Virus record (IMG/VR): IMGVR_UViG_3300045988_025591
Span: 1-37,955 of that record
Strand: one strand, 5' to 3'
From: a virus
DNA length: 37,955 nt
Shown: positions 1,325 to 37,955 of the stretch, piece by piece
Numbering within the stretch: the first letter of the stretch is position 1
How the letters are laid out: each line of letters starts with the position of its first letter
Notes under the pieces: generated by a model
Database searches by the model: none
Told to the model about the DNA's origin: nothing
What the model saw: the letters and a program-made list of their open reading frames with translations, nothing else
Translations under genes and position numbers: made by a program

Positions 1325-3904
1325 ATATCAGATGGAACATTAAAGTTTGATACCAAGATTGATACAAGTGGTCTAGAGAATGGAATGAAATCCGTTCATG
1401 TAGTCACAAGTGGAGCTACAAATGCTATTAAAGAAACTTCAAAAGCGATTGATAAGCTAGGCTCTGATGGTTCAAAAGCACCACCAAAAATTAAAGATAA
1501 ACTTAAAGATTTAAACGAAGAGCAAAAGAATACACAAACAGAAACACAAGAAACGGGTTCAAAGTTTGATGTATTTAAGCAGATTGGAAGCAGTGCCTTA
1601 GAATCAATTCAAGGTGGATTTGATGGACTATTAGGAAAGATTCAGAATATTAGTCCGGAAGCTACTGCAATCACAGAAACATTAACAGGATTAGGCGTTG
1701 GAGGTGTCGTTGGTGTTACCGCCTTAGCCGGAGCTATTGGTGGAATGGCATTAGCAATTAAAACAGGTGTTAATCAAGCTATGGAACTAGATGACGCTAT
1801 GGCTAAATTCCAAGCTCAAACAGGTGCTTCAAGCAGTGAAATGAATAAATTTAAAAACATTGCTCGTGATGTTTGGTCTAATAATTTCGGTTCAGATGTT
1901 TCAGATGTTGCCGATATGATGGGCAGAGTCAAGCAACAAATGCAAGGCATAAGTGATGTTGATTTAAAGAATGTTACAGAAGACTTGATTACATTAAGAG
2001 ACGTTTACGGCATGGACGAGAACGAGACTCTTAGAGGTGCGAAACAATTAATGGAACAGTTTGGAATCAGTTCCGAAAAAGCTTTCGACCTTATGGCTAA
2101 AGGTGCTCAGAATGGTTTGGATTATTCCGGTGAATTAGGAGACAATATCGCAGAATATGCCGGTAAATTTGCACAAGCAGGATATTCGGCAGAAGAATAT
2201 TTCCAAACTATGACAAATGGTGTAAAAGGTGGTTCTTATAACCTTGATAAAATGCAAGACGCAGTAAATGAAATTACTACACGAATGTCAGACGGAACTA
2301 TTGAAGGAGCATTAGATAGTTTCAATGATAAGACAAAAGAAGTTTTTCAAGCATATAAAGAAGGTGGAGCAACACAAAAAGATGTGCAAGACGCAATCGT
2401 CCAAGATATTAAAGAAACAACAAATCAACAAGAAGCGTTAAATAAAGCAAGTATTGCATTTGGCACAATGGGAGAAGATTTCAACCTTAAGTTTATTACA
2501 TCCTTATCATCTGTAGGTGATGAATATAACAATGTAGCTGGAACAATGGATAAAGTTAAAGAAATCGCAAATGGTGGCTTAAAGAACGCTTTAAGCGGTT
2601 TAGGACGTGCGTTTCTTGATTCATTCACCCCAATAGGTGAAGCAATTACTCCTATACTTGCAGGAATTGTAGGACTTATAACAGTAGCTATACAAGGTAT
2701 TCAACAAGGATTTGCAAAGATTGGTGATGTAATTTCAAGTGTATTAAGTAAGATTGATACAAGTGGAATTACAGAATTGACAAGTCAAGTTTCTAAAGTA
2801 TTAGCTCCTGCGTTTAAAGAAGTTAAAAAAGCTATTGATGAAATGAAATCGGCTCTTGAACCTATTGCAAAAGATATATTAAGCAAGATTATTGAAGTCA
2901 TTCAAAACATTGTGAATCAAGCACAAAAGATTATTACCGTAGTAGGACCACCGATATTTTCTGTTTTAAAGAAAATCATTTCAACAGTTTCGGAATTTAT
3001 GCCTTTAATCACATCTATATTGACTATTGTCGGAAGTGTTGTAAGTGGAGTCATTTCATTTATAAATATGGTAGTCACATATACCGGAACGGCAATTGCA
3101 ACGGCAATGGGATTTATCACGCCTATCGTTCAAATCATTTCTACGATTGTAGCAAATATTTGGTCGCTTATCTTAACAGTATTAACAAATATATGGAGTA
3201 AGATTAGTGAAGTTGTAACGGCAATCATTGGATTCGTAAGCAATTTATTTAAGACGGTTACGGATATCATAAACAATATTTGGAGTAAGATTCAAGATAC
3301 AATGAACAGAGTTGGAGATAAAGTAAAAGGTGTTATTGATAATATCAATAAATATTTCAATAATATCAAATCTACGGTTTCAGATGTATTTAATGGAATT
3401 TGGACCAAGATTCAAGGCGTAATGGATAAGGTAGGAAATAAGGTATCCGGAGTGTTAGAAGGAATTAAAAACTCATGGGATGGATTAAAAGCATTTACAA
3501 GTGGTGTATTTAGTGGAATTGAAAGTGCTTGTAACAGTTTAGTTTCTAGTGTCAAAGGTTTCGTAAATGGAGTTATAGGTGGAATTAATGGTGCAATCAG
3601 TATCATCAATAAGATTCCGGGAGTTCACATTGGCAAAATTCCAAGACTAGAACGTGGTGGTGTATTGAAACGTGGTCAGATTGGTTTATTGGAAGGTAAC
3701 GGAGCAGAAGCAGTCGTACCATTAGAAAAAAATAAAGCATGGATTCGTGCCGTGGCAAAAGATATGGCTCAAATCATGCCTAGCGTTACAACGAATAACA
3801 ATGGACAGACTATTAACTTCTACAATAAGGCTCAAAGTCCGGATGAAATCGCTAGAATGTTACGTATGCAAGCAAGATATGGATATGGAGGTGTAGTTCA
3901 ATAG
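1325..3904 (+). CDS. tail tape measure protein (ATA start proposed)
   Basis: Largest ORF in the window, with a Gly/Ala-rich membrane-like segment and long helical repeats. ATA at 1325 is the first codon after an in-frame TGA and lies 8 nt after GGAGGTGG (1309-1316). It adds ISDGTLKFDTKIDTSGLENG, a typical tape-measure N-terminus. The track ATG at 1385 has no good SD. Confidence 0.85.
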   Translation: MSDGTLKFDTKIDTSGLENGMKSVHVVTSGATNAIKETSKAIDKLGSDGSKAPPKIKDKLKDLNEEQKNTQTETQETGSKFDVFKQIGSSALESIQGGFDGLLGKIQNISPEATAITETLTGLGVGGVVGVTALAGAIGGMALAIKTGVNQAMELDDAMAKFQAQTGASSSEMNKFKNIARDVWSNNFGSDVSDVADMMGRVKQQMQGISDVDLKNVTEDLITLRDVYGMDENETLRGAKQLMEQFGISSEKAFDLMAKGAQNGLDYSGELGDNIAEYAGKFAQAGYSAEEYFQTMTNGVKGGSYNLDKMQDAVNEITTRMSDGTIEGALDSFNDKTKEVFQAYKEGGATQKDVQDAIVQDIKETTNQQEALNKASIAFGTMGEDFNLKFITSLSSVGDEYNNVAGTMDKVKEIANGGLKNALSGLGRAFLDSFTPIGEAITPILAGIVGLITVAIQGIQQGFAKIGDVISSVLSKIDTSGITELTSQVSKVLAPAFKEVKKAIDEMKSALEPIAKDILSKIIEVIQNIVNQAQKIITVVGPPIFSVLKKIISTVSEFMPLITSILTIVGSVVSGVISFINMVVTYTGTAIATAMGFITPIVQIISTIVANIWSLILTVLTNIWSKISEVVTAIIGFVSNLFKTVTDIINNIWSKIQDTMNRVGDKVKGVIDNINKYFNNIKSTVSDVFNGIWTKIQGVMDKVGNKVSGVLEGIKNSWDGLKAFTSGVFSGIESACNSLVSSVKGFVNGVIGGINGAISIINKIPGVHIGKIPRLERGGVLKRGQIGLLEGNGAEAVVPLEKNKAWIRAVAKDMAQIMPSVTTNNNGQTINFYNKAQSPDEIARMLRMQARYGYGGVVQ

Positions 3905-4770
3905 ATATCAATAAGGTAAGAGTTATCGTCCGTAGGGATGATGGCAAAGAATTTGAAATTGATAACAAAAGATGGAGAATACCGTCTAGTGATGGTTTAG
4001 ATGGGTTCGACTATGTAGCACCTTCATATACAACCCAAGACAATGCATTCGGAAATGGTGCTAGATTAATCGGTTCACGTATTCCAACGAAAGAAAGAAG
4101 CGTGAAAGCTACCTTTAAAGGCTCATTAGAAGAAAAAAGAGAAGAAAGGGAGAAGCTACGGCGCTTCTTCCAATATTCTCATATGTTTGATGTGATAGTT
4201 GAATATATGGGAGAAAAGAAATATTGCAGAGGTCGTTTATATGCGTATAGCTTGCCTACTGTTAACATCTACAAAGATTTAGAGCTTAACTTTACAATAT
4301 TATGCACACAACCTTTATTGCTTTCATTTGATGATTTTGCAAGGAATATTGCAGAAATTGGTGAAGGTTTAGCATTCAATTTTGAAATACCGGAAACAGG
4401 TGTGAACTTTGGAACATTTACATTCGCTAGAGAAATCTATATTGATAATCAAGGCGATACAGAAACATACTGTAAAGCCGTTATTGAAGCGTTTGGAGAG
4501 GTAACAAATCCGAAATTATTCAATAAAGATAAATATATTCGTGTATTAGATACATTGCACAATGGGGATGTATTAGAAATTGATTTAGTTTCTGAGCCTA
4601 TTTCGATAAAAAAGAATGGTGTGAATTGTATCGGTAAAGTTGACAGGACTTCATCATTCAATGATATGACGATTCAGTTAGGTGAGAATATCATAGGATA
4701 TACGGCAGACAGTGGAGACACTAACCTAGCTTGCACTGTTTACTATAATGAAAGGTATTTAGGTTTATAG
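3901..4770 (+). CDS. distal tail protein (Dit) (ATA start)
   Basis: The frame is open from 3901 and has no ATG/GTG/TTG before the track GTG at 4102. The 67 extra codons (IDINKVRVIVRRDDGKEFEIDNKRWRIPSSDGLDGF...) look like a Dit/phage-tail-family N-terminus. GGAGG lies at 3887-3891, 9 nt upstream. The ATA overlaps the tape measure TAG stop (ATAG). Confidence 0.8.
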   Translation: MDINKVRVIVRRDDGKEFEIDNKRWRIPSSDGLDGFDYVAPSYTTQDNAFGNGARLIGSRIPTKERSVKATFKGSLEEKREEREKLRRFFQYSHMFDVIVEYMGEKKYCRGRLYAYSLPTVNIYKDLELNFTILCTQPLLLSFDDFARNIAEIGEGLAFNFEIPETGVNFGTFTFAREIYIDNQGDTETYCKAVIEAFGEVTNPKLFNKDKYIRVLDTLHNGDVLEIDLVSEPISIKKNGVNCIGKVDRTSSFNDMTIQLGENIIGYTADSGDTNLACTVYYNERYLGL

Positions 4771-4771
4771 T

Positions 4772-5797: not shown

Positions 5798-6304
5798 ATA
5801 GAAAAGAACAATGGAGGATTTAAACAAATAACAAGAAGTATGTATTTTCTAGACAAGATGAATGCAATGGGCGGTGTAGCCGTTGCCGTATTAACATACG
5901 TATTAGGTGAGCATTGGTATTTATTTGCGTTCTTCTTATTTGTGAATGTAGTTGATTATATTACAGGGTGCATGAAGTCGGCGATTAATCACAAAATCAA
6001 TAGCAATAAAGGATGGATTGGAGTCCTAAAAAAGCTAGGCTATTGGATTATGATTGTCGTAGCGTTCACATTCAGTGCATTCTTGGTAGAGATTGGAAAA
6101 ATGCTAGGAATTGATTTCCATGTAACCACATTATTAGGATGGTTTGTGTTAGCTTCTTTGTGCATTAATGAAGTGCGTAGCATCATTGAGAACCTTGTAC
6201 AATGTGGATATAGCGTACCTAACGTATTAACTAAAGGACTAGAAGTGGCAGATAAACTCATTAACGAAGAACAAGACAATGACGAATCAAGTACCTTGGA
6301 ATAA
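5798..6304 (+). CDS. holin, phage_holin_4_1 / TcdE-like family (ATA start proposed)
   Basis: Several TM helices and the family motif (VDYITGCMKSAINHKINSNKGWIGVLKKLGYW). AAGGAG lies at 5784-5789 followed by an 8-nt spacer and ATAG. The track GTG at 5789 abuts the SD with zero spacing. Confidence 0.8.
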   Translation: MEKNNGGFKQITRSMYFLDKMNAMGGVAVAVLTYVLGEHWYLFAFFLFVNVVDYITGCMKSAINHKINSNKGWIGVLKKLGYWIMIVVAFTFSAFLVEIGKMLGIDFHVTTLLGWFVLASLCINEVRSIIENLVQCGYSVPNVLTKGLEVADKLINEEQDNDESSTLE

Positions 6305-7279: not shown

Positions 7280-7303
7280 TTGCGTTGAAAGGAGGAAATA
7301 TAA

Positions 7304-7915: not shown

Positions 7916-7999
7916 CTCGAAAGAGATTAGGCAATAGCCTTTGGATTATAGGGTAGTCGAAAGGCTACCCATTTATTTTATATACAGGAGGAAAAGAAA

Positions 8000-8915: not shown

Positions 8916-9689
8916 ATAAATTATCAAAGTTTTAAAAATGCCGTATTAGGCAAAGTTTTCGACATTGATGGATATTATGGTGCTCAATGTTGGGATGGAT
9001 TCGCAAAGTATATGATTGATTTAGGGTACAAGGCAATCCACTGTACAACAAGTGGATACGTAAAAGACATTTGGAATAACAGAAAGACAAATGGAATCTT
9101 AAATTATTGCAATGAAGTTACAGTAATGCAAGCCGGAGATATCGCAGTATTCAGAGAAGTAGCAGGATGGACTCCATACTCACACATTGCAATTTTCGAT
9201 TCAGACATTGATGGTAAATTCGGATGGTTTCTAGGTCAAAATCAAGGTGGAAAGCTTGGGTCATTTACATTATGTAAATTACCATACAGTGCTACATTTG
9301 ATACGGCTTTTAGACCTAAATGTCTTGCAAATGCTAAACCAACACAGACGGTTAAACCTAAACCAGTAGTTACTCCAAAAGAAGCAATTGACCAAATCTT
9401 ACATGTTGGAAGTTACGTCACATCTGTTCAAATGAAGATTGGAAATCAAGGATTAAAAAAGATTAATAACGATACTTGTGCCTATTTATCTCAATTAGGT
9501 GGATGGTTTCCAATTTCAATGGTAACAAAGGTCAGATATTCTGATGGATTCAATGATGATGTATTGCACACTACAAATGCAGTGGTATACATTACTAGAA
9601 TTAGAGTTGATGAAGTCAACGTACAAAAGAACCTTGTCAAGATTGGTGGTATTTGGGTAAGTGCTACACCATTAATTGAAGTAGCATAA
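8916..9689 (+). CDS. endolysin, N-terminal CHAP domain plus C-terminal cell-wall-binding region (ATA start)
   Basis: The CHAP catalytic-Cys motif (YYGAQCWDGF) lies upstream of the track ATG at 9012. The frame opens at 8901 after a TAA and has no ATG/GTG/TTG before 9012. ATA at 8916 lies 9 nt after AGGAGG. The His region (YSHIAIFD) and GQNQGG lie downstream. Confidence 0.85.
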   Translation: MNYQSFKNAVLGKVFDIDGYYGAQCWDGFAKYMIDLGYKAIHCTTSGYVKDIWNNRKTNGILNYCNEVTVMQAGDIAVFREVAGWTPYSHIAIFDSDIDGKFGWFLGQNQGGKLGSFTLCKLPYSATFDTAFRPKCLANAKPTQTVKPKPVVTPKEAIDQILHVGSYVTSVQMKIGNQGLKKINNDTCAYLSQLGGWFPISMVTKVRYSDGFNDDVLHTTNAVVYITRIRVDEVNVQKNLVKIGGIWVSATPLIEVA

Positions 9690-14552: not shown

Positions 14553-14705
14553 ATGATGACAGGTCATGGAGGTGAAACAATACTAGATAAGAGAATTTTC
14601 GAAGCTCTAGGCTTACTTGAAAAGAAAGGCTATGAGCTATCTGAATTCGATAAAGGGTATATCGCTTGTATCCTTAACGAATCCAAAAAAGAAGAAAAGA
14701 GGTGA
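14553..14705 (+). CDS. hypothetical 50-aa protein (weak call)
   Basis: An open frame with a tandem ATG ATG start but no SD. The stop overlaps the next gene region. Confidence 0.3.
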   Translation: MMTGHGGETILDKRIFEALGLLEKKGYELSEFDKGYIACILNESKKEEKR

Positions 14706-16135: not shown

Positions 16136-16441
16136 ATGGAATTAGTAAACGTAACAAATGGACAAATTGAAATTCAAAAGGAAACACTGAACAAATTGAA
16201 ATCATTCAATGAGTACAAAAAAGAGATGGACAAATTGGAAAAGGAAGTTAAAAAGAACATCCTAACCGCTATGGAAGAAAACGGAATCAAACAATTTGAA
16301 AATGACGTGGTTAAAATCACATATACTGCACCTTCTACACGTACTGTAATTGATACAAAGCTAGTAGAAGAATTAGGGCTAACACATCAATTATCTAAGG
16401 AAACACCGGTCAAAGGAAGCGTAAGGGTGACTTGGAAATAA
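16136..16441 (+). CDS. hypothetical protein (recombination module)
   Basis: The start is moved from the track TTG at 16070 to the ATG at 16136, after AAGGAGGAAAG. Confidence 0.6.
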   Translation: MELVNVTNGQIEIQKETLNKLKSFNEYKKEMDKLEKEVKKNILTAMEENGIKQFENDVVKITYTAPSTRTVIDTKLVEELGLTHQLSKETPVKGSVRVTWK

Positions 16442-16728
16442 AACGAGATAAGTCAATACTTCAAAAAGATATGTCTAAATGTTATGTATGTGGTTCAACA
16501 TTGAATTTACACACACATGAAATATATTTCGGTACTGCTAATAGAAAAAAATCAATTGAGCATGGGTGTTATGTACGTTTATGCGCTAGACATCACAACA
16601 TGAGCAGTGAAGCAGTACATTTCAACCACAAATTAGACATGAAGCTTAAAAGGGAATGCCAAAAGGCATTTGAAGAAGTACACACAAGAAAGGAGTTTAT
16701 GGATATATTCCATAAAAATTATTTATGA
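16438..16728 (+). CDS. zinc-binding HNH/Ref-like nuclease (tentative); the start may be ATA
   Basis: CYVCGS...HTHEIYFG...NRKKS...LCARHH...VHFN is an HNH-like pattern. ATA at 16438 lies 8 nt after AAGGGTG and overlaps the upstream TAA (ATAA). Alternatives are the TTG at 16432 (track) or the ATG at 16471 (no SD). Confidence 0.5.
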   Translation: MKRDKSILQKDMSKCYVCGSTLNLHTHEIYFGTANRKKSIEHGCYVRLCARHHNMSSEAVHFNHKLDMKLKRECQKAFEEVHTRKEFMDIFHKNYL

Positions 16729-18124: not shown

Positions 18125-18485
18125 AGGAAAGCTAGATGGATTGAATGAATATATTAATGCTTGCAGAACAAATCGGTACAAAGGAGCAGAAATGAAGAAA
18201 AAGAATGAGCGATTAATTATGGCTTATATCTTACAGGCAGTAAACTTCGGTGAAATTTACGAAGTTAAGAACTACCCAATTAAATTAAATATTAATTGGT
18301 ATGAACCGAATTCAAGGCGTGATGTTGATAACGTAACATTTGCAACTAAATTCATTCAAGATTCATTAGTTAGAACGGGAATACTTGAAGATGATTCAAG
18401 GAAATACATTAATCAAGTGAATCATACAGTATTTACAGATAAAGAGAATCCAAGAATAGAAGTAGAGATTCTAGGAGGTGATTAG
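18108..18485 (+). CDS. rusA: RusA-family Holliday junction resolvase (ATA start)
   Basis: RusA-like pattern (LNEYINACRTNRYKGAEMKKK ... DVDNV ... DDSRKYI). The frame opens at 18084 and has no ATG/GTG/TTG before the track TTG at 18141. ATA at 18108 lies 6 nt after AAGGTGG and restores the usual KFVIKGKL N-terminal strand. Confidence 0.8.
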   Translation: MKFVIKGKLDGLNEYINACRTNRYKGAEMKKKNERLIMAYILQAVNFGEIYEVKNYPIKLNINWYEPNSRRDVDNVTFATKFIQDSLVRTGILEDDSRKYINQVNHTVFTDKENPRIEVEILGGD

Positions 18486-22641: not shown

Positions 22642-23229
22642 ATAAGAGAACATTGGACAGAAGAAAAGATAAAATCACAAATCAAAGAAATGATTATTGA
22701 TACAGGATTAAACAGAATGCCTACAAGAAGAGAAGTTGAAGAATACTATGGAGATTCAAAATTAGGAAATGCAATTTCAAAAAGAAGTTTATGGTTTCCT
22801 TTAGCGAAAGAATTACATTTAGAATCAAAACCAAGTAGAACAAATTTCGGCAGAAAATATGAATTGAAATTTATGGATTATATAGAGAACAAAGGATATG
22901 AAGCTATTAAAATGTCTACAAAACATCCGTATGATATTTTAGTGAATGAATGTGTAAAAGTTGATGTGAAAGCGAGCACCTTATACAGAGGTAGGAATGG
23001 GAGCTTTTACACATTCAATTTAGAAAAAACATATCCAACTTGCGACATATATATCTTGTACATACTTAGTGATGATGAAAAAGTTTTAGATGTATTGGTA
23101 ATTCCTAGTAAAGATGTTATAGGTATAAGTCAAATAAGTGTAGGAGAGCATTCTAGCAAATATTACAAATATTCAAACAAATGGAGTTATATAAAACGAT
23201 ATTGTGATTTTATCAAATCATTAAATTAA
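22642..23229 (+). CDS. PD-(D/E)XK nuclease-fold protein (ATA start)
   Basis: The C-terminal YDIL...VKVDVKAS is a PD-(D/E)XK-like motif. The frame opens at 22639 after a TAA, and the only start-like codon before the track ATG at 22690 is ATA at 22642, 6 nt after GGAGG. This adds REHWTEEKIKSQIKE. Confidence 0.6.
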   Translation: MREHWTEEKIKSQIKEMIIDTGLNRMPTRREVEEYYGDSKLGNAISKRSLWFPLAKELHLESKPSRTNFGRKYELKFMDYIENKGYEAIKMSTKHPYDILVNECVKVDVKASTLYRGRNGSFYTFNLEKTYPTCDIYILYILSDDEKVLDVLVIPSKDVIGISQISVGEHSSKYYKYSNKWSYIKRYCDFIKSLN

Positions 23230-23245: not shown

Positions 23246-23440
23246 ATAGAAATGAATCATGAAGAAAGGATTAAAGAGTTAATTTCTAAAAACAATAAAC
23301 TAGGAAGGACAAATATTGAGCTTAATCAGATTATAAAAGAAAGAAATGCAACAATTCATAATCAAGCGCATGAAATAAAGAAATTAAAATATAAAGTTGG
23401 CGAATTAGAAGATAGATTGTATAAGGTATACAGTTCATGA
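23246..23440 (+). CDS. hypothetical coiled-coil protein (start uncertain: ATA 23246, GTG 23237 or ATG 23252)
   Basis: GGAGG lies at 23233-23237. ATA is 8 nt downstream, the GTG overlaps the SD, and the ATG is 14 nt away. Confidence 0.45.
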   Translation: MEMNHEERIKELISKNNKLGRTNIELNQIIKERNATIHNQAHEIKKLKYKVGELEDRLYKVYSS

Positions 23441-23763
23441 GCACATATGAGGATATTAAGAGACACTTCTTGTGTGAATGTCAATCATACACATACTACG
23501 AACAAAAGATAGCGGAGCTACAAAGGGATGAAGCTATTTATCCTTTAAAAGCCGAGCTATTCTTAGCTCATGCAGATTATGCAAGAAGAATGAACTACGT
23601 AAAAGATAAATTAAGCCAACTTGATGATACTACTCGAACAATGATTGAGTATAGATATATAAAGGGATTCAGTGCAGAAAAGACATCTAATATTGTAGGT
23701 TATGCAAGAGAAGAGATTCCAAGAAAAATAAATAAGAATTTAAAGAAAGTGCTCACAATGTGA
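23437..23763 (+). CDS. late-gene activator candidate, sigma-70 region-4-like (RinA/ArpU-type position)
   Basis: The C-terminal RTMIEYRYIKGFSAEKTSNIVGYAREEIPRKINKNLKKV is region-4-like. It is the last early gene before the packaging region, and its start overlaps the upstream stop (ATGA). Confidence 0.6.
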   Translation: MSTYEDIKRHFLCECQSYTYYEQKIAELQRDEAIYPLKAELFLAHADYARRMNYVKDKLSQLDDTTRTMIEYRYIKGFSAEKTSNIVGYAREEIPRKINKNLKKVLTM

Positions 23764-23772
23764 GCATTTTTT
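23748..23772 (+). terminator. rho-independent terminator
   Basis: GTGCTCAC-aat-GTGAGCAT forms a 7-9 bp stem followed by T6. The stem includes the stop codon of the upstream gene. Confidence 0.75.
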
Positions 23773-23774
23773 CA

Positions 23775-23783
23775 TGCGATAAT
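23775..23783 (+). promoter_or_regulatory. extended -10 element (TGCGATAAT) in front of the tRNA
   Basis: TG-N-GATAAT ends at 23783, and base 1 of the tRNA (A at 23790) is 7 nt downstream. I saw no good -35. Confidence 0.4.
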
Positions 23784-23789: not shown

Positions 23790-23865
23790 AGCAGGATAGA
23801 GCAGTAGTAGCTCACTAGTCTTATTAGCTAGAGGTCGAAGAGTGCAATTCCTTCTCCTGCAACCA
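23790..23865 (+). tRNA. initiator-like tRNA with anticodon UAU (reads AUA)
   Basis: A 76-nt cloverleaf. Acceptor stem AGCAGGA/UCCUGCA has 6 bp plus an unpaired A1 x A72, with U8 present. D stem GAGC/GCUC gives A11:U24. Anticodon stem CUAGU/GCUAG closes the loop CUUAUUA. Variable loop is AGGUC. T arm GAAG(A)G/CCUUC has the loop UGCAAUU. The discriminator is A and CCA is encoded. Confidence 0.8.
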
Positions 23866-23947: not shown

Positions 23948-23972
23948 ACCGAGCGTTTGTCTCGGTTCTTTT
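23948..23972 (+). terminator. terminator downstream of the tRNA
   Basis: ACCGAG-cgtttgt-CTCGGT followed by TCTTTT. Confidence 0.6.
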
Positions 23973-25948: not shown

Positions 25949-26407
25949 ATAAAGAATCAAACAATTAAGACAATTTCAATGAATGCAATCGTATGTGCAA
26001 TGTATGTTGCGTTATGTGTAGCATTAAATCCAATTAGCTTTGGAGCATTACAATTTAGAGTAGCAACTCTATTGTTACCATTAGGATTTCAAGATAAGAG
26101 ATTTGCAAATGGACTTATTCTAGGAGTAATCTTAGCAAACTTAACAAGTTCACTAGGATTAATTGATGTATTAGTTGGATTTACAATTCAATTTACAATG
26201 TATTATTTATTCCCATATTTTATTAAGAATAAATGGATTCATGGAATTGCTTATGCAGTATTAAGTGGAACTCTAGTAGCATTAGAATTATTATCAGTAT
26301 TACACATTCCATTCTTATATTCATTTATTACAGTAGGATTAAGTGGATTGATTTTATATGAAGTAGGGAATGTATTATGTACAAGATTATTGAAATACAT
26401 TGATTAA
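25949..26407 (+). CDS. queT: QueT-family queuosine-precursor transporter (ATA start proposed)
   Basis: A multi-TM protein with the QueT-like N-terminus (AIVCAMYVALCVALNPISFGALQFRVATLLLPL). AAGGAGG at 25934-25940 is followed by an 8-nt spacer and ATA. The track TTG at 25928 precedes that SD, and the ATG at 25979 has no SD. Confidence 0.7.
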   Translation: MKNQTIKTISMNAIVCAMYVALCVALNPISFGALQFRVATLLLPLGFQDKRFANGLILGVILANLTSSLGLIDVLVGFTIQFTMYYLFPYFIKNKWIHGIAYAVLSGTLVALELLSVLHIPFLYSFITVGLSGLILYEVGNVLCTRLLKYID

Positions 26408-28112: not shown

Positions 28113-29516
28113 ATAGAAACATCTAACACACGTAATCCGTGGTTTCAGAATTACCTAAACGATAGAGGGTATTATGTAGATACAAATGCAATTCAAATTA
28201 TTGAATTGTGCAATAAGTGGTATACAAATACCGAAACAGAATTTCATACGGCATACACCTTGAACAATGAGGAATACACATTGGATAAAACAGACTTTGC
28301 AAAACGTTTATGCGAGGATGACGCAAACCTAATTGAAATCCTAGATATAAACGCTACAGAGGACAGTACTACAAATGACATTATTTCAGACATTCTAACA
28401 AAGAATAGGTTTGATGTAATGTATAGGAAACAAGTTGAGCAAATGTCTGCAAACGGTACAGTAGGAGCTTATGTAACGGTATCAAATGCCGAAATCTATG
28501 AAGATGGTAGTTTCAGTGGGGGAGAAATCAGAATCAATTATTGTGATTCAATGAATATCCTTCCATTAACTGTTATTAATGATGAAATTGTTGAAGTTGC
28601 TTTCGTTGGAGTTAATTATGAGAAATTGAAAAAGGTATATGTCTTAGTCATGTTCTTAAAAGGACAAGATGAAAGATATATCGCAGAAACACATTACTTT
28701 AAAGATACAGGCGAAGAAATAAAAGACCGTGCTCAAATTGTTCAATTAGATGTGGTCAAGCCGTTTGCAATTATGAGAAACGCAAAAGTAAATAACTTGC
28801 AAATGCAAGGGTACGGCTTACCTAAGATTTGGAGTGCGATTGCTCCATTAAAAACAATTGATTTAACAATGACAATGTGGAATAGAGATTTATTGAAATC
28901 GGATAAAATCGTTCTTGTGAATGAAGCATTAATGCATAAGGACAAGAATGGAAATGTAAAGACCAACCCACAACTCAAGAATATATTTGTTCAGCTAGGC
29001 AGAGATAAGTTACCGGAAGAAAAAGCGTTATGGCAAGAATATAATCCTACAGTTAGAACGAATGAGGTTGTTCAGTCGTTAGAAACTGCGTTAAGTATTC
29101 TATCCATGATGTTTGGATTCGGTACAAAGAAATACACATTTGAAAGTGGAAGAATCGTAACGGCTACAGAATATATCGGTGAGAATCAAGACGCTATGAA
29201 AGAAGTAAACTCACAACGAAAAGAATCTACTGCATATATTCAAGATATCATTCAAGCAATAGCGTATTTCTATGAATTAACACAAGGCAGAAAGCTTAAT
29301 ATTAATTCATTAGATATTGCTATTGATTATGACGATACATATATCGAGGATAAACAAAGTACCACACAAGCGTTACGAAATGATGCACTTACATTCGATA
29401 TTCCAAGATTAAAAATCATGTACTTCATGAAGCAATACGGCTTTACTGAAGAAGAAGCCAAAGAATTATTAAATGAAGAAATTCAAGATGATGGAGAGGA
29501 GGATGAAGAAGAATAG
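28113..29516 (+). CDS. portal protein (SPP1 Gp6-like) (ATA start)
   Basis: Follows TerL. AGGAGG at 28101-28106 is followed by a 6-nt spacer and ATAGAA. There is no ATG/GTG/TTG in the 31 codons before the track TTG at 28206, which sits inside the conserved IIELCNKWYTN segment. Confidence 0.9.
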   Translation: METSNTRNPWFQNYLNDRGYYVDTNAIQIIELCNKWYTNTETEFHTAYTLNNEEYTLDKTDFAKRLCEDDANLIEILDINATEDSTTNDIISDILTKNRFDVMYRKQVEQMSANGTVGAYVTVSNAEIYEDGSFSGGEIRINYCDSMNILPLTVINDEIVEVAFVGVNYEKLKKVYVLVMFLKGQDERYIAETHYFKDTGEEIKDRAQIVQLDVVKPFAIMRNAKVNNLQMQGYGLPKIWSAIAPLKTIDLTMTMWNRDLLKSDKIVLVNEALMHKDKNGNVKTNPQLKNIFVQLGRDKLPEEKALWQEYNPTVRTNEVVQSLETALSILSMMFGFGTKKYTFESGRIVTATEYIGENQDAMKEVNSQRKESTAYIQDIIQAIAYFYELTQGRKLNINSLDIAIDYDDTYIEDKQSTTQALRNDALTFDIPRLKIMYFMKQYGFTEEEAKELLNEEIQDDGEEDEEE

Positions 29517-30322
29517 CAACTACATATTTTCCATTCGTCTCAAGAAATGGCGATAGATTAGTATTATATGACGCTTTCAGAAGATTGTTCTCAAGCTACT
29601 TCACAAATGGTGTGTTCGTAGATGATTCTAGTTCAGACCATTTGAGAGTTGAGAAAGCTCAAGGCTTAACATTAACAGTTAAAGCAGGACGAGCAAATAT
29701 TAACGGAGCGTTCTATTGGCAGAAAGATGACGAAACCATCACATTAGAAAAGAATAGTGCAACTAAAAGTTACAATATCATTCTTAGATTGAATGATAAT
29801 GACGCATACAGAAATATCACATTGATTGCTAGTGATATTAATAATGGAATTACAAGAAGTGATTCTATTTACGATTTAGTACTAGCTACAGTCACGGTTA
29901 CAGGTAATTCAAGTGAAGTCAAGGGTTCAGATATTACAGATACAAGATTAGATTCTACACGTTGTGGAGCAGTTACAAGCACTATTAAGAGCGTACAATC
30001 ATTAGATTTATTCACACAAGTAACGGAGTTATTTAAAGAAATCAAGGCTCAGAATGAATCTGAAATGAACGCAAATAGAACAGAATTTAATGATTGGTTT
30101 GAAACTGTAAAAGATACGTTAGACGCAAATACGGCAGGAAAGTTATCAAATAGAATTTCAAACATTGAAAAGATGATTATGGAGAATCATTTCACCACAA
30201 TCTTATTAACAGAAGATGGAACACTAGTGGATGAGAATGGTCATGAGATTCTAGCAGATTGGGCGTATGAAGTTGATAAAGGTGAAGTAGGCAAAGATTG
30301 GACTTACAAGGTGAAATCATGA
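29513..30322 (+). CDS. virion structural protein with an N-terminal YFPF...GDR motif (fibre module) (ATA start)
   Basis: ATAGCA overlaps the portal TAG stop and lies 10 nt after GGAGAGGAGG. It adds IATTYFPFVSRNGDRLVLYDAFRR, a conserved N-terminus in homologous prophage fibre-module proteins. There is no canonical start before the track TTG at 29585. Confidence 0.6.
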   Translation: MATTYFPFVSRNGDRLVLYDAFRRLFSSYFTNGVFVDDSSSDHLRVEKAQGLTLTVKAGRANINGAFYWQKDDETITLEKNSATKSYNIILRLNDNDAYRNITLIASDINNGITRSDSIYDLVLATVTVTGNSSEVKGSDITDTRLDSTRCGAVTSTIKSVQSLDLFTQVTELFKEIKAQNESEMNANRTEFNDWFETVKDTLDANTAGKLSNRISNIEKMIMENHFTTILLTEDGTLVDENGHEILADWAYEVDKGEVGKDWTYKVKS

Positions 30323-30955: not shown

Positions 30956-31564
30956 ATAGCTATTGAATATTTAGACAAGAGTGGATTGACTCTATTAATT
31001 GGTAAAATTAAATCTGCATTAAGTGGAAAAGTTGATGCGGTAAGTGGCAAAGGCTTATCGACAAATGACTACACAACCGCAGAAAAAAGCAAATTAAGTG
31101 GTATTGCAAGTGGCGCTCAAGCTAACGTAATTGAGTCTGTAAAAGTAAACGGAACGGCATTAGTGCCAAGTTCAAAAGCCGTTGACGTTTCAGTACCGAC
31201 AAAGGTATCGCAATTAACAAATGACAGTGGTTTCCAAAATGCTACACAAGTAAATACAACGATTGTCGGAAAAGGATATCAAACGCAATCTCAAGTACAA
31301 TCGTTGATTAATTCGGCAGTAGGAAACATTACATCCATTAGATATGAAAAGGTAAGTTCATTACCTGCTACAGGTTCAAACGGTGTAATTTATTTGGTTG
31401 CGCATACACATGGAACGCAAGATATTTATGATGAATACATTTGGATTTCAGACAGTAAGGCATTTGAAAAGATTGGTAGTACAGACATTGATTTATCGGC
31501 ATATGTTAAGAAATCAGAATTAACTGCGATTACAACAAACGAATTAAATACAATGTGGGGTTAG
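30956..31564 (+). CDS. tail fibre protein (KGLSTNDYT..EK.KL repeat type) (ATA start)
   Basis: AGGAGG at 30943-30948 is followed by a 7-nt spacer and ATAGCT. It adds IAIEYLDKSG to the track TTG start at 30986. The GKGLSTNDYTTAEKSKLSGIASGAQANV motif is typical of phage fibres. Confidence 0.6.
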   Translation: MAIEYLDKSGLTLLIGKIKSALSGKVDAVSGKGLSTNDYTTAEKSKLSGIASGAQANVIESVKVNGTALVPSSKAVDVSVPTKVSQLTNDSGFQNATQVNTTIVGKGYQTQSQVQSLINSAVGNITSIRYEKVSSLPATGSNGVIYLVAHTHGTQDIYDEYIWISDSKAFEKIGSTDIDLSAYVKKSELTAITTNELNTMWG

Positions 31565-35134: not shown

Positions 35135-36004
35135 ATAGCAAATGAAATTGCATTGGCTAAAACGTATGTCTCTAATCTAGATGAGGTATATAAGTTAGCT
35201 TCAGTAACAGGCGATTTAAATGCGGACGCTACAATGGTAAGAGCAGGAGCAAACGCAAAAGAAATCATCTATCCACAAATTTCAGTCAAAGGTTTAGGAA
35301 ACTACGATAGAAATAGCGGATATACATCAAATTCAGTTAAATTAGAATGGAAGACTGCTACATTTGATTACGATAGAGGAACAAAGATTGCAGTTGATAC
35401 ACAAGATAACGCAGAATCAATGAATATTGCATTCGGTATGGCAGGAGCGGAATTAATGCGTACAAAGGTAGCGCCGGAAGCAGACGCTTACACATTTGCT
35501 AAGATTGCCGGTACAACAGGAATTACAAAGGTTTCAGAAGATTATGAAGGAGCACAAGCATTCTTAGACGCATTATTAACGGCCGTTAATAAAATGGATG
35601 AAGATGAAGTTCCTAGCGAACAACGTATCTTGTATTCAACACCTACATTGTTAAATAGCGTTAAGGCATTAGATACGTATAAATCACGTGAAGCTTTACA
35701 AGGATTCGCAAAGGTAGTTCCTGTACCTTCAACACGTTTCTATACAAAGATTAAATTGTTGAGCGGAGCAGATACAGAAACAGATGGTGGATTTGAAAAA
35801 GCGGAAGATGGACACGCAATCAATTTCTTAATTGTTCACAAACCTGCCGTTATGAAGTGGGATAAACACACTGTTTCAAATGTAATTCCTGCAAGCAATA
35901 ACATTGAATCAGATTCAGATGTATTGAAATATCGTAAGTATGGAATCGTTGATGTATATGCAAATAAGGTAGCAGGTATCTACTTATCTGCTAGTGCGAA
36001 GTAA
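35135..36004 (+). CDS. major capsid protein (ATA start)
   Basis: AAGGAGG at 35119-35125 is followed by a 9-nt spacer and ATAGCA. The frame opens at 35132 after a TAA. The track TTG at 35153 is 27 nt from the SD. The N-terminus IANEIALAKTYVSNLDEVYK is coat-protein-like, and the gene follows the scaffold gene. Confidence 0.85.
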   Translation: MANEIALAKTYVSNLDEVYKLASVTGDLNADATMVRAGANAKEIIYPQISVKGLGNYDRNSGYTSNSVKLEWKTATFDYDRGTKIAVDTQDNAESMNIAFGMAGAELMRTKVAPEADAYTFAKIAGTTGITKVSEDYEGAQAFLDALLTAVNKMDEDEVPSEQRILYSTPTLLNSVKALDTYKSREALQGFAKVVPVPSTRFYTKIKLLSGADTETDGGFEKAEDGHAINFLIVHKPAVMKWDKHTVSNVIPASNNIESDSDVLKYRKYGIVDVYANKVAGIYLSASAK

Positions 36005-36503: not shown

Positions 36504-36919
36504 TAGGATTCTTTGAAGATTCAATCACACTTGTGAACCACTACTATGATACATTGACAAGAGAAGATAGGTTTCAAGCTTCTATTCTTGATAAATGTAT
36601 GTGGAGACAATCAACGGTTAGAACTGCAAACGGTAATATTCTGAGCATAGCCACATCCACAAATATTACCATTCTATATCGTGAGGGATATGTTGAACCT
36701 TACGCATATGCAAAACTTTCAAACGATGAGAAACAAAAACACTTCACATTAAATACAGATAAAACCGATTTCGTATTCTTTGGAGAAGTAGAAGAAGATT
36801 TATCTAGTATTAAAGCAATAAATGAAGCTAAAAAGAAATACAAATGGACAACGATTCAAAGTGTTACAGATTGTACGAATGTCGATATGTTGAAACATTG
36901 GGAGGTTGTCGGTCAATAG
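36500..36919 (+). CDS. head closure / head-tail adaptor (assigned by position)
   Basis: The ATG at 36500 forms an ATGA overlap with the upstream stop. The track ATG at 36488 is an alternative. Confidence 0.5.
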   Translation: MIGFFEDSITLVNHYYDTLTREDRFQASILDKCMWRQSTVRTANGNILSIATSTNITILYREGYVEPYAYAKLSNDEKQKHFTLNTDKTDFVFFGEVEEDLSSIKAINEAKKKYKWTTIQSVTDCTNVDMLKHWEVVGQ

Positions 36920-37278
36920 GAATAAAAGTCAAACTTGATGTTGAATCAATTCCCCAAATTAAGCAATCAAGAGGACTTGAAGAACGTGGACGAGTGCAAC
37001 AAATGATTGACTCTGAAGTCATTAGGCTTATGACCCCCTATACGCCTAGAGATACCGGAGCATTGATTAACTCGGCTACAAGAAACACTCAAATCGGTAG
37101 CGGATTAGTAAAGCAAGGTGGACCAAGTGCTCCATATGCAAGACGTTGGTATTACAACAAAGAGGGTGCTCATTTCGTTTGTGGTAAAACAGACCACTGG
37201 TTTGAAAAAGCTATGCGAAATGGTGGAGCAGAAACAATCTTGAAGAAAGCACAACAAATGATAGGAGACGGAGAATGA
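36916..37278 (+). CDS. HK97 gp10-like / minor-capsid-family head-tail joining protein (ATA start)
   Basis: GGAGG at 36901-36905 is followed by a 10-nt spacer and ATAGGA, which overlaps the upstream TAG. The track ATG at 36844 would overlap the upstream gene by 76 nt. The motif is PYTPRDTGALINSAT. Confidence 0.65.
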   Translation: MGIKVKLDVESIPQIKQSRGLEERGRVQQMIDSEVIRLMTPYTPRDTGALINSATRNTQIGSGLVKQGGPSAPYARRWYYNKEGAHFVCGKTDHWFEKAMRNGGAETILKKAQQMIGDGE

Positions 37279-37694
37279 CAGTATCAAAAGCATTGATTCA
37301 ATGGCTATATGGATATGGAAATATACAGATAGATGAACGTATCGAAACGGATGTATTAGCGCAACAAGCTATTTCTTATGCATTGTATAAAGAACCCAAT
37401 GCAATTGTAGATACATACATTGACGGCTCTCAAATGCGTACTGAATACTACACGTTTCTAGCACGTAGGAATACACAAATTGAATCAGAAAGACAAGACA
37501 ACAATGTTTTTCTAGAAGAATTAGAAAATTGGATTGATGAAAAGAATTTAAACGGAGAATTGCCACAACTAGACGGAAACAGATATTGCGAGGATGTTTC
37601 CGTTTCAAGTGGTTTATATCTATACACAAATGAGGATAGTCAAGCGGTATATGCGTTAACTATTCAAATCAAATACAGAAAGGAGCTTAATTAA
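37275..37694 (+). CDS. tail completion / tail terminator candidate (assigned by position)
   Basis: ATGA overlap after GGAGACGGAG. This is the last gene before the major tail protein. Confidence 0.5.
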   Translation: MTVSKALIQWLYGYGNIQIDERIETDVLAQQAISYALYKEPNAIVDTYIDGSQMRTEYYTFLARRNTQIESERQDNNVFLEELENWIDEKNLNGELPQLDGNRYCEDVSVSSGLYLYTNEDSQAVYALTIQIKYRKELN

Positions 37695-37955
37695 TAGCAA
37701 CTACAGGAACTGAAGTTAATACAGGACAGACGGTCAAAAAGTATATGATTGGATTGTTCTTGGAAATGGGAACAGGTTATAAGCGAATTAAGAAATCTAC
37801 AACTTTAGATATTTCATTTAACAGTGAAACTGAAACGTATGATTTTATCGCAGATAAGAATCCGACGGAATCATTAAAGAGTTATTCACCTCAGATTTCA
37901 CAAGATTTAACAATGATTAAAGGTGAAGATGACTTTGAATATATTTACGAACAGA
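37694..37955 (+). CDS. major tail protein, 5' part (continues at 1..364) (ATA start)
   Basis: AAGGAG at 37680-37685 is followed by an 8-nt spacer and ATAGCA, with a TAATA overlap on the upstream stop. The frame opens at 37691 after a TAA, and the first canonical start is 17 codons downstream (ATG at 37745) with no SD. Confidence 0.75.
   Translation, partial: MATTGTEVNTGQTVKKYMIGLFLEMGTGYKRIKKSTTLDISFNSETETYDFIADKNPTESLKSYSPQISQDLTMIKGEDDFEYIYEQ
37837..37955. repeat. 119-bp terminal duplicate of bases 1-119 (circular closure of the contig)
   Basis: The two segments are identical when read directly in the sequence. Confidence 0.95.

Follow-up and report, generated by a model that had tools for sequence, protein, structure and literature searches.

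A mismatch at positions 1 and 72 bars a tRNA from use by EF-Tu and marks it for formylation. As a start codon, AUA initiates in E. coli at only 1–2% of the level of AUG in vivo, and AGG at no more than 1% (bioRxiv 10.1101/063800). In vitro, AUA equalled AUG when placed in an optimised initiation region and read by the normal E. coli initiator (PMC5499595), so a dedicated tRNA is not strictly required for its use. The first-pass annotation of the DNA studied here described AUA as a very poor start, which agrees with the in vivo value but not with the optimised in vitro system. No earlier description of a phage-encoded, non-AUG initiation system such as that proposed below was found in the literature.

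The window (the whole stretch of 37,955 nt analysed) holds the complete genome, circularly permuted and about 38 kb long, of a temperate siphovirus. The phage is common in the human gut and its host is probably a low-GC gut member of the Bacillota. Around 16 of its genes, with roles in replication, virion formation and lysis together with QueT, have changed their start codon from AUG to AUA, and the genome carries an initiator-like tRNA with the anticodon UAU. A natural orthogonal initiation system is, with high probability, the best explanation for these two features as they appear in the sequence. A TGT/DpdA-like gene is also present (24853–25632).

Start sites in the window

ATA is present at all 16 positions listed in the first-pass annotation, each time 5–10 nt downstream of an AGGAGG-like Shine–Dalgarno (SD) sequence (Table 1). 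Its counts of ten sites reading ATAG, and five reading ATAGCA or ATAGCT, are also correct. Duplex energies range from −6.9 to −16.7 kcal/mol, and ATA is the best or joint-best SD-scoring start candidate in 13 of the 16 ORFs (the exceptions being 5798, 18108 and a tie at 23246). Nine ORFs with a length of 80 codons or more combine a strong SD at the 5′ edge with the lack of a canonical start there, and all nine possess an in-frame ATA at SD distance. Strong SD sequences precede 9.6% of in-ORF ATA codons, compared with 3–6% of other A/T-rich codons and 14.6% of ATG. Canonical starts in the window number roughly 50–55, fewer than the 65 or so ordinary ATG genes first estimated, and the product of the gene at 29513, initially taken for a fibre protein, matches a PHROG 'head protein'.

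Two general statements about these sites needed to be narrowed. The upstream frame, said to close within a few codons, stays open for 15 codons at 3901 and for 28 at 36916, where an in-frame ATG (36844) lacks a comparable SD. Similarly, ATG, GTG and TTG are absent ahead of conserved sequence at most sites but not at the holin (5798), QueT (25949), 16438 and 23246, where a canonical codon lies 2–14 codons from ATA, and the assignment of these four therefore rests on SD spacing and on relatives. At 16438, a TTG two codons upstream sits too near the SD, while the Pfam holin domain begins only at residue 31, and is compatible also with downstream ATGs. A candidate additional ORF of 41 aa (Table 1) gave no family match.

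Table 1. Genes with ATA starts, and elements around the tRNA gene, in the window (SD energies in kcal/mol).
Feature	Coordinates	Strand	Details
Tape measure protein	1325..3904	+	ATA start; SD energy −16.7; in-frame stop (TGA) directly upstream; first ATG 20 codons in
Distal tail protein (Dit)	3901..4770	+	ATA start; SD energy −13.1; first canonical start 67 codons in
Holin	5798..6304	+	ATA start; SD energy −8.3 (5798); possible second ATA at 5828, SD energy −9.3
CHAP endolysin	8916..9689	+	ATA start; SD energy −12.0; CHAP domain from residue 18; first ATG is codon 32
Small ORF, 41 aa, candidate extra ATA start	14580..14705	+	GGAGGTG, 5 nt, then ATA; energy −13.6; A at −1
phrog_7566 protein, probable ATA start	16438..16728	+	Residue 4 at profile position 4 of a 96-position family
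RusA resolvase	18108..18485	+	ATA start; Pfam RusA, residues 23–121 on profile 20–123
Replication initiation/DnaD-like protein	18487..19218	+	ATA start; SD energy −14.5; first downstream canonical start is codon 31
phrog_28936 protein	22642..23229	+	ATA start; SD energy −10.7; stop one codon upstream; PHROG match from residue 4
Small coiled-coil protein, probable ATA start	23246..23440	+	SD 7 nt from ATA, 13 nt from an ATG two codons later
Hairpin and T6 run, directly 5′ of tRNA	23750..23772	+	Sequence reading; stem seen in terminator scan, on a palindromic site
Extended −10-like TGcGATAAT	23775..23783	+	Sequence reading; ends 6 nt short of tRNA position 1; putative promoter of the tRNA gene
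Initiator-like tRNA, anticodon UAU	23790..23865	+	Rfam tRNA model; loop CUUAUUA; U37; encoded CCA end
Terminator-like hairpin 3′ of tRNA	23948..23966	+	Terminator scan
QueT transporter	25949..26407	+	ATA start; SD energy −11.1; ATG at codon 10 without SD
Portal protein	28113..29516	+	ATA start; SD energy −12.5; first canonical start is codon 31
Head protein (phrog_1220)	29513..30322	+	ATA start; SD energy −15.0; PHROG match from residue 3; ATA in 44/44 relatives
Virion protein	30956..31564	+	ATA start; SD energy −10.2; same codon ATG in 6 close relatives, ATA in 18
Major capsid protein	35135..36004	+	ATA start; ATA in 35/35 close relatives, ATG at homologous codon in 16/16 distant ones
Minor head/Minor_capsid_2-like protein	36916..37278	+	ATA start overlaps upstream stop; SD energy −11.4; Pfam profile position 1 at residue 3
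Major tail protein (runs off window end)	37694..37955	+	ATA start; SD energy −10.9

The phage tRNA and its covariation with the start codon

The UAU initiator-like tRNA reported previously was recovered with the Rfam tRNA model (43.2 bits, E = 4e-6), and was not called in an ARAGORN scan of the window. Its hallmarks are an A1×A72 mismatch, G2:C71, C3:G70, A73, A11:U24 and G30:C40, the last of these an essential pair. Those in the acceptor and D stems are formyltransferase and initiator determinants listed in PMC5389676, and G30:C40 alone can suffice (PMC5389676). The anticodon stem retains just one of its three conserved G:C pairs (A29:U41, G30:C40, U31-G39), position 37 is a pyrimidine, and the elbow is odd in the clade of the window (no G18G19, G55, a bulged T stem). 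Among 16 family members, the cloverleaf is 94.9% paired and 15 of its 21 pairs covary; position 1:72 is unpaired in 14 and U:A in the other two, C3:G70 and A73 occur in all 16, A11:U24 in 15 and G2:C71 in 13. Judged by these features, the gene is derived from an initiator tRNA. The hairpin preceding it likely ends the replication-module transcript, and with its own promoter-like motif (TGtAATAAT, identically placed, in relatives) and terminator-like site the tRNA gene would appear to be a self-contained unit.

Start codon and anticodon covary across lineages. ATA starts co-occur with tRNA(UAU) in 35 IMG/VR contigs, and three other diverged lineages show the same combination. Among the four diverged UAU lineages that use ATA is a prophage carried by Amedibacillus sp. 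YH-ame6, an isolate. Under strict criteria, 37 loci with the UAU tRNA (728 kb) contained 138 SD-ATA starts and no AGG, 37 loci of related phages with the CAU version (713 kb) were essentially canonical, with 1 ATA and 3 AGG, and 8 loci with a CCU tRNA (150 kb) showed 18 AGG and 2 ATA, the locus counts including related contigs and not representing independent events. The AGG starts of the CCU phages belong to the homologous portal, tape measure, capsid, small terminase and major tail genes. The tRNA was not found in the examined part of L016, a 43-kb contig of the ATA clade.

The base before the start codon is also informative. It is A at all 16 ATA starts of the window as against 25 of 50 canonical starts (p = 2e-4), 'TA' precedes 7 of the 16 as against 1 of the 50 (p = 1e-4), and all 18 AGG starts have A at −1. 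Exceptions to the −1 A among relatives are the portal gene of L209 and the Dit gene of L171. U37 occurs in all UAU and CCU tRNAs, which together with the A at −1 suggests a start signal of 4–5 bp.

The initial proposal that the ATA codons are real starts served by the phage tRNA is thus supported by initiator hallmarks, by co-occurrence and by the CCU/AGG sister phages. It could be argued instead that the starts are real but read by the host initiator tRNA(CAU) with the aid of a very strong SD, and that tRNA(UAU) is an elongator tRNA-Ile for decoding AUA in an AT-rich phage. ARAGORN labels better-behaved relatives 'tRNA-Ile (tat)', the canonical three G:C pairs are absent from the anticodon stem, and AUA mRNA performed like AUG mRNA in the optimised in vitro system (PMC5499595). 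We nevertheless regard this as unlikely, given the initiator features found across the family (a mismatch or weak pair at 1:72 in all members, with A73, G2:C71, C3:G70 and mostly A11:U24), a U37 where elongators have a purine, and its complementarity to the −1 A, which fits P-site pairing. Moreover, the host initiator cannot account for the CCU/AGG system, as AGG mismatches CAU at two positions, and sister phages with the CAU tRNA have a single ATA start in 713 kb. A further argument is that the major capsid and major tail proteins must be highly expressed, more so than initiation at 1–2% would allow.

Homology and conservation of the ATA-started extensions

Several ATA codons adjoin or overlap stops (37694 and 36916 overlap the upstream stop, and 1325 follows an in-frame TGA), and ribosomes might simply resume at the SD by re-initiation or translational coupling, with no cognate initiator and ATA merely tolerated. 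This is very improbable: a distance of 15–100 nt separates most ATA starts from where the upstream gene ends, and coupling does not predict the same codon at 16 of 16 sites, its conservation, the switch to AGG with a CCU tRNA, or the presence of the tRNA.

The stretches following ATA are coding, as is shown alike by alignments of homologues, by Pfam/PHROG registers and by variation at the third codon position. Alignment, proposed at the outset as a check on the extensions, showed distant homologues reaching into them, and variable sites within them fall 41/26/133 by codon position (p = 1e-22). Registers fit the ATA starts of the endolysin, the phrog_7566 protein (Table 1) and the capsid, where position 2 of the PHROG major head profile aligns to residue 2. 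Distant homologues align from residue 5 of Dit (variable sites 19/10/53), residues 12–13 of the portal and residue 2 of RusA, which is ATA-started in L209 as well, and PHROG replication-initiator families align from residues 4–5 of the 18487 protein. The tape measure N-terminus, xSDGTLKFDTKIDT, matches AGG- or ATA-started tape measures of L140, L147, L242, L171, L209 and L212, the L114 homologue of the 36916 protein has Met at residue 3, and the major tail homologues of L171 and L209 likewise begin ATA GCx ACA/GAA.

The codon is kept at these sites in dozens of independent contigs, including 33/33 relatives for the tape measure, 29/29 for Dit, 45/45 for the portal, 35/35 for 36916 and 30 for 23246. 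More distant relatives and a few close ones have ATG at exactly the same codon, as in the capsid gene, whose ATA-bearing close relatives come from at least six metagenomes. At four sites, some close relatives carry ATG instead of ATA; the QueT start is ATG in two, codon 5798 of the holin is ATA in 24 relatives, ATG in 1 and AAA in 3, and the major tail start is ATA in 30, ATG in 1 and TTA in 2. On these comparisons, the ATA codons are the true starts of the genes.

Public gene calls, both for this contig and for relatives, begin at downstream ATG, GTG or TTG codons (portal 411–436 aa, Dit 222 aa, capsid 283 aa) and would make ATA incidental. Little conserved sequence would be lost in this way from the holin, QueT, 16438 and 23246, but elsewhere the portal would lose 31 codons, Dit 67 conserved ones and the endolysin the beginning of its CHAP domain, and with SD sites preceding ATA rather than the downstream codons, the third-position bias, and ATG at the ATA position in relatives, we give these calls hardly any credence. 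Systematic G-to-A miscalls or assembly errors, perhaps through 7-deazaguanine DNA modification in a genome with a TGT/DpdA-like gene and QueT, have a close to negligible probability, since dozens of contigs assembled in different projects carry the same codons, as does an isolate genome assembly, start codons alone are affected while 1033 ATG trinucleotides remain, the AGG variant would require a T-to-G error, and a matching tRNA cannot be an artefact.

Proposed mechanism and comparison with an elongator tRNA

In the orthogonal system proposed here, the SD would guide 30S binding, after which the phage tRNA(UAU) would pair with AUA in the P site. U37 and A38 probably add to the helix, which would then reach the A at −1 and in many cases a U at −2, giving a signal of 4–5 nt, (U)A-AUA. 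The host initiator (CAU) would read AUA poorly, but U34-G wobble could let the phage tRNA read AUG as well; orthogonality would therefore be one-way. We infer P-site use, formylation, charging, extended pairing and the N-terminal residue from sequence; the most likely guess for the loaded amino acid is Ile, through anticodon-driven charging. Both changes behind the system are single steps, the tRNA going from C34 to U and every affected start codon from G to A; the sister phages took a parallel route by A35 to C (anticodon CCU) and ATG to AGG.

The ATA genes are all located in lytic-cycle modules, with none among the integrase, repressor and moron genes. It may be speculated that lytic genes are gated by expression of the tRNA, as in the translational lock on leaky prophage transcripts suggested in the first-pass annotation; another option is a way around host attack on tRNAfMet or its shut-off. 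Either way, this is apparently a natural, virus-owned route to start protein synthesis. Its tRNA differs from the true elongator tRNA-Ile(UAU) of L114, which has the same anticodon and a normal A37 loop, whereas the initiator-like tRNA of the phage carries U37.

Initiation at ATA triplets

Comparative evidence identifies ATA as the initiation triplet of about 16 window genes. ATA is present at 16 of the 16 positions for which the first-pass annotation had claimed it, and the counts given there for ATAG (10 of the 16 sites) and for ATAGCA or ATAGCT (five) are also correct. An AGGAGG-type Shine-Dalgarno (SD) site lies 5–10 nt 5' of each, and scoring of start candidates by duplex energy with the 3' end of 16S rRNA ranks the ATA first or joint first in 13 of 16 frames (e.g., −16.7 kcal/mol at 1325, −15.0 at 29513, −14.5 at 18487 and −13.1 at 3901), the exceptions being 5798, 18108 and a tie at 23246. 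Triplets close to SD sites were counted with scans that took ORF edges into account, replacing a crude count after any SD, which was uninformative; all nine ORFs of at least 80 codons that have a strong SD at the 5' edge but no canonical start there have an in-frame ATA at SD distance. Some of the earlier descriptions need to be narrowed. Upstream frames said to be closed within a few codons are indeed so except at 3901 (15 open codons) and 36916 (28 open codons, with an in-frame ATG upstream at 36844), and the lack of a canonical start until well inside conserved sequence does not extend to the holin, QueT, 16438 and 23246 genes, where such a codon occurs within 2–14 codons. The protein at 29513, previously called a fibre protein, matches a PHROG designated 'head protein'.

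If the ATA codons are starts, homologues should align to the N-terminal extensions they create, and this was found for Dit, portal, RusA, capsid and the 36916 protein. Distant homologues (24–64% identity) reach into the extensions from residue 5 of Dit, 12–13 of portal and 2 of RusA, and align from residue 3 of the 36916 protein and residue 1 of the capsid protein, in both cases opposite Met. Family profiles behave similarly: in the 36916 protein residue 3 is matched by position 1 of Minor_capsid_2, in the capsid protein residue 2 by position 2 of the major-head PHROG, and in the 16438 protein residue 4 by position 4 of phrog_7566 (96 positions). Counted from the ATA, the CHAP domain of the endolysin starts at residue 18 and the first ATG is codon 32. 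Variable sites between the ATA and the first canonical codon, among relatives, number 41, 26 and 133 at codon positions 1, 2 and 3 (chi-square p = 1e-22), which implies that the extensions are constrained as coding sequence in the ATA frame. ATA is conserved across relatives at all 16 sites, and at four of them (5798, 25949, 30956 and 37694) a few close relatives have ATG instead. The capsid gene starts with ATA in 35/35 close relatives (91–97% identical in amino acids and drawn from six or more different metagenomes), and the homologous codon is ATG in 16/16 distant relatives from IMG/VR. Only a start codon would be expected to show such interchange of ATA and ATG.

Public gene calls truncate the ATA-started genes. 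The portal cluster, for example, is 436 aa long compared with 467 aa from the ATA, and its 1406 member sequences, all annotated in N-terminally truncated form, indicate that the window phage is common. Annotation pipelines thus get the capsid, portal, tail and lysis genes wrong in a group of common human-gut phages.

Three further observations concern individual starts. The holin frame has SD-preceded ATA codons at both 5798 and 5828, 10 codons apart, and the first is AAA in three relatives; the pair may specify a holin/antiholin dual start, or the second may be the true start. A 41-codon ORF at 14580–14705, absent from the earlier list and with no family match, is an additional candidate (GGAGGTG, 5 nt, then ATA, with A at −1). 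The large terminase gene overlaps the small terminase gene and is without a convincing SD or start in the interval 26760–26791 (TTG at 26775 or 26784); its homologue in the related locus L212 has an ATA start.

Coordinates and order of features in the window and of AGG-start examples in related prophages
Feature	Position	Remark
Tail, lysis and small accessory genes		First module
Tape measure, ATA	1325	
Dit, ATA	3901	
Holin, ATA	5798	
Endolysin, ATA	8916	
Integrase	11628–12722	Followed by divergent repressor
Sak, NinB, RusA, DnaD-like protein, dUTPase, SSB		Recombination/replication module, after integrase and repressor
phrog_7566 protein, ATA	16438	
RusA, ATA	18108	
DnaD-like protein, ATA	18487	
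ATA	22642	
ATA	23246	
Hairpin and T6	23750–23772	Upstream of tRNA
Extended −10-like TGcGATAAT	Ends 6 nt 5' of tRNA position 1	Putative promoter
tRNA, anticodon UAU	23790–23865 (+)	Lone; after recombination/replication module
Terminator-like hairpin	23948–23966	Downstream of tRNA
ParB_N nuclease-like, TGT/DpdA-like, small unknown and QueT genes	24257–26407	Directly 3' of tRNA
QueT, ATA	25949	
Terminase, portal, head, beginning of major tail gene		Last module
Portal, ATA	28113	
Head, ATA	29513	
ATA	30956	
Capsid, ATA	35135	
ATA	36916	
Major tail, ATA	37694	
AGG starts, L088	5419, 6836, 9995, 12651	Clostridia prophage
AGG starts, L140	2050, 12140	Clostridia prophage

The phage tRNA and its genome

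The Rfam tRNA model matches 23790–23862 at 43.2 bits, directly followed by CCA. Purine 11 : pyrimidine 24 is a hallmark of initiator tRNAs, and the D stem has A11:U24. The variable loop, AGGUC, is that of E. coli tRNAfMet. At the acceptor end, an A1×A72 mismatch is followed by G2:C71 and C3:G70, with A73, in agreement with the 1:72 state of initiators and with the formyltransferase determinants, which comprise a 1×72 mismatch with paired 2:71 and 3:70 and are listed as including the discriminator A73 (PMC5389676). Two initiator features are altered. The anticodon is UAU (loop CUUAUUA, with U37) instead of the CAU of bacterial initiators, and the anticodon stem (A29:U41, G30:C40, U31-G39) retains only the middle one of the usual three G:C pairs; E. 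coli can manage with G30:C40 as the sole such pair, and natural au/GC/gu stems occur in initiators of mycoplasmas and alpha-proteobacteria (PMC5389676). Elongator tRNA-Ile(UAU) has a Watson–Crick 1:72 pair, a purine (t6A) at 37 and pyrimidine 11 : purine 24, all of which differ in the window tRNA, and a genuine example in the related locus L114 has the loop CUUAUAC (A37) and a D arm of GCUCAG...AGAGU. By these features the window tRNA is not an elongator tRNA-Ile, and the labels 'tRNA-Ile' and 'tRNA-Arg' applied by tools mask the role of such tRNAs.

An alignment of 16 members, E. coli tRNAfMet among them, is 94.9% paired, and 15/21 pairs covary. Every member has C3:G70 and A73, G2:C71 occurs in 13/16 and A11:U24 in 15/16; at 1:72, 14 members are unpaired and two have U:A. 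The single-sequence fold of the window tRNA is no better than those of shuffles (z = −0.95), so that the claim of tRNA structure rests on the covariation. The elbow is odd in the window clade only, having a D loop (AGUAGUA) that lacks G18G19, a T loop (UGCAAUU) in which position 55 is G, and a single bulge in the T stem, filled by G, U or C depending on the relative. These features are the likely reason that ARAGORN called no tRNA in the window, the tRNA being found with Rfam at the E-value threshold. The combined pattern of D arm and anticodon loop recurs in 35 contigs of IMG/VR, every one belonging to the window clade; variation in the tRNA sequence is limited to the T arm, with its pairing kept. 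With its flanking hairpins and putative promoter (see table), the tRNA looks like a transcription unit of its own.

The genome is 37,955 nt, with about 33% G+C and nearly all genes on the + strand. A 38,189-nt ENA gut-metagenome scaffold (ERZ28573264, BRIT16-1_SAMN02334079) is identical to it and a second matching contig has 37,940 nt, from which it follows that the window is a circularly permuted, essentially complete temperate siphovirus genome. No nucleotide match was found among INPHARED phages (megablast, blastn), a GTDB scan with large-terminase peptides found nothing, and a capsid-profile scan of GTDB genomes returned only relatives of 64% identity or less. Look-ups of exactly matching proteins gave contigs of phage size only (37.9 and 38.2 kb). 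An Erysipelotrichaceae host is therefore a guess, made solely from a related prophage of Amedibacillus.

The genes directly 3' of the tRNA, among them the TGT/DpdA-like gene (phrog_887, E = 2e-59), look like a 7-deazaguanine DNA-modification module. GATC is absent from the whole window compared with about 115 sites expected, CAGC, GCTG, CGCG and GGCC occur once each, and CCAG/CTGG is strongly depleted, a tetranucleotide pattern indicative of marked restriction-site avoidance.

Codon and anticodon across related phages

Profile scans for capsid (GTDB genomes) and portal (IMG/VR) brought up numerous related prophages in Clostridia and other Bacillota, and a tRNA of the same build is encoded by most of them. 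On this scaffold sister phages carry CAU, CCU or CGC. Under one strict set of criteria, and with related contigs included so that the counts are not independent events, loci with UAU (37 loci, 728 kb) have 138 SD-ATA and no SD-AGG starts, those with CAU (37 loci, 713 kb) have one and three, and those with CCU (8 loci, 150 kb) have two and 18. Codon and anticodon, as counted in these loci, covary between lineages. UAU and ATA occur together in four diverged lineages: the window clade, L208-210/213 and L211/212/214 (portals of both 55–58% identical to that of the window), and a prophage (L171) of Amedibacillus sp. YH-ame6. The last, from a cultured isolate (JBSPEZ010000008.1, GCA_053848845.1), has the full UAU/ATA system, with its tRNA at 7861–7936 and ATA starts on the small terminase, portal, capsid, tape measure, Dit and major tail genes; this cultured lysogen makes the system directly testable. 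It also encodes a tRNA ligase, RtcB (1235–2419), a possible link to tRNA damage and repair.

AGG starts are found on homologous genes, including portal (xENCVKEYL...), capsid, small terminase, major tail and tape measure (xADGTLLFDTKLD..., compared with xSDGTLKFDTKID... in the window), in at least six tRNA lineages (L088, L102, L140/147/149, L100/132/151, L240 and L242). The Clostridia prophages L088, L102, L132, L140, L147, L149, L151 and L242 have a CCU initiator-like tRNA, with the 1×72 mismatch and U37, encoded some 650 nt 5' of capsid. Two positions of AGG fail to match the normal initiator, and in E. coli this codon initiates at 1% or less of AUG (bioRxiv 10.1101/063800), so the CCU tRNA must be the initiator there, and by homology the same holds for the UAU tRNA. 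CAU to UAU or CCU, and ATG to ATA or AGG, are each single substitutions, giving a simple evolutionary route from a phage-borne tRNAfMet.

The start signal may extend 5' of the triplet. In the window genome, A precedes 16/16 ATA starts compared with 25/50 canonical starts (p = 2e-4), and TA precedes 7/16 compared with 1/50 (p = 1e-4). Curated AGG starts have A at −1 in 18/18 and T at −2 in 12/18, and in the other UAU lineages A is at −1 of 19/21 ATA starts, the exceptions being the L209 portal and L171 Dit. All UAU and CCU tRNAs have U37, mostly then A38, complementary to A(−1) and U(−2), whereas CAU tRNAs have A, G or U at position 37. A codon–anticodon helix of 4–5 bp, (U)A-AUA or (U)A-AGG, could form, and this might offset the weakened anticodon stem and sharpen specificity.

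Several single cases stand apart. An initiator-like tRNA at L241:8449–8523 has a CGC anticodon (loop UUCGCUG, U37), would read GCG, and is nearly identical to the CAU tRNA of L215/L222; the contig ends about 700 nt later and its portal starts with ATG. An odd tRNA in L161 (loop UUAUUAC) has no corresponding start-codon pattern in that locus, and AGG hits in the high-GC locus L087 were rejected as false positives. In L140 the Rfam 'gut-2 RNA' motif lies just 5' of the AGG-started small terminase (1959–2006) and just 5' of tRNA(CCU) (7279–7326), a pair that could be a shared regulatory element; the motif was not detected in the window.

Mechanism, role and relation to known systems

The core reading of the first-pass annotation, that ATA starts are served by a UAU initiator-like tRNA of the phage, is supported by the tRNA features and by the codon–anticodon covariation. 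Non-CAU initiator-type tRNAs accompany cognate triplets that start genes at SD distance (UAU with ATA, and CCU with AGG in sister phages), the combination to be expected of orthogonal initiation. AUA in an optimised initiation region equals AUG in vitro (PMC5499595), and AUA alone is therefore no proof of a special tRNA; the case rests on the tRNA features and the AGG parallel. Co-occurrence lends support to a putative dependence of the ATA genes on the phage tRNA and not on the host initiator. In the proposed mechanism the phage tRNA would receive an amino acid, be formylated by the formyltransferase of the host and be brought into the P site by IF2, and the 1×72 mismatch would keep it out of elongation. 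E. coli tRNAfMet anticodon mutants are charged according to the new anticodon, by which rule the UAU tRNA would carry Ile and the CCU tRNA Arg. U34 could wobble-read AUG, making separation from the host system one-way. A-to-I RNA editing could mimic a change of AUA to AUG but cannot yield the AGG case, and was rejected, as was a DNA-modification or sequencing artefact.

We consider it likely that gut Bacillota (Erysipelotrichaceae, Lachnospiraceae and relatives) host a widespread siphovirus family, temperate in lifestyle, that has repeatedly re-pointed its own initiator tRNA from CAU to UAU, CCU and possibly CGC, has turned the starts of essential genes into AUA or AGG, and so forms a natural one-way orthogonal channel with a start signal of 4–5 nt (U37/A38 against −1/−2). 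If so, present-day gene callers systematically shorten the key genes of these abundant phages. What such a channel might be for is more speculative. The first-pass annotation suggested a translational lock on leaky prophage transcripts, an idea with which the stand-alone tRNA unit fits, as does the lack of ATA starts among the integrase, repressor and accessory genes; however, replication genes that lie 5' of the tRNA are among those with ATA starts. Another role may be protection from a host attack on, or shut-off of, tRNAfMet, as hinted at by the plain CAU initiator of many sister phages and by RtcB in the Amedibacillus prophage. If orthogonal initiation is correct, temperate phages would have a new type of switch for gene expression, or a new anti-defence device.

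To our knowledge, recoding by phage tRNAs has until now involved stop codons only. Start-codon identity would thus become a further part of the genetic code rewritten by viruses, and these phages would be the first case in nature of sense codons being reassigned to initiation through a dedicated tRNA. AUA is also a regular initiation codon in animal mitochondria, where a single tRNAMet with f5C34, a modified CAU tRNA, reads AUG and AUA in both initiation and elongation, AUA being Met throughout; the window phage instead adds a UAU tRNA of its own, and AUA inside genes presumably still specifies Ile. Canonical tRNAfMet shares the 1×72 mismatch, the 2:71 and 3:70 pairs, A73, A11:U24 and G30:C40, and that of E. 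coli aligns throughout with the family, but the phage tRNA differs in UAU, U37, its viral gene and a third pair, U31-G39, that breaks the purine:pyrimidine rule. Esposito et al. (EMBO J 2003) reportedly proposed that U at −1 pairs with A37 of tRNAfMet at initiation in bacteria and chloroplasts. There too the base 5' of the start is complementary to initiator position 37, but the predicted window pair is inverted (A at −1, U37), nearly invariant, and often reaches U(−2):A38.

Gut phages (crAss-like, Lak and others) recode stop codons with phage suppressor tRNAs, for which a role in lytic timing has been proposed (bioRxiv 10.1101/2021.08.26.457843). As there, a phage tRNA alters codon meaning, the affected genes are concentrated among lytic or late functions, and standard gene callers fail. 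Stop-codon recoding acts in elongation at in-frame stops, whereas all window genes are open in table 11, the sole tRNA reads AUA, and it is the start triplet, served by an initiator-type tRNA, that has changed. The closest parallels are the engineered orthogonal initiators of E. coli, namely amber tRNA(CUA), i-tRNA(AAC) and a phiX174 biocontainment design with TAG capsid-gene starts, in which the phage depends on an altered initiator tRNA (bioRxiv 10.1101/2024.07.29.605542; 10.1101/2021.05.25.445580). A search of openly accessible full-text literature found engineered systems only and no natural example of such initiation. In the engineered and the phage systems alike, an initiator body has a changed anticodon, and essential phage genes have a cognate non-AUG start behind a normal SD. 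The engineered systems are man-made, with the tRNA supplied by the host strain, whereas the window system is natural and its tRNA phage-borne; the family also uses sense codons (AUA, AGG), has evolved repeatedly, and adds U37 and a remodelled anticodon stem. If this reading is correct, these phages would be the natural counterpart of engineered orthogonal initiators and would offer a ready answer to their weak points, in the form of an altered anticodon stem, U37 and extended pairing.
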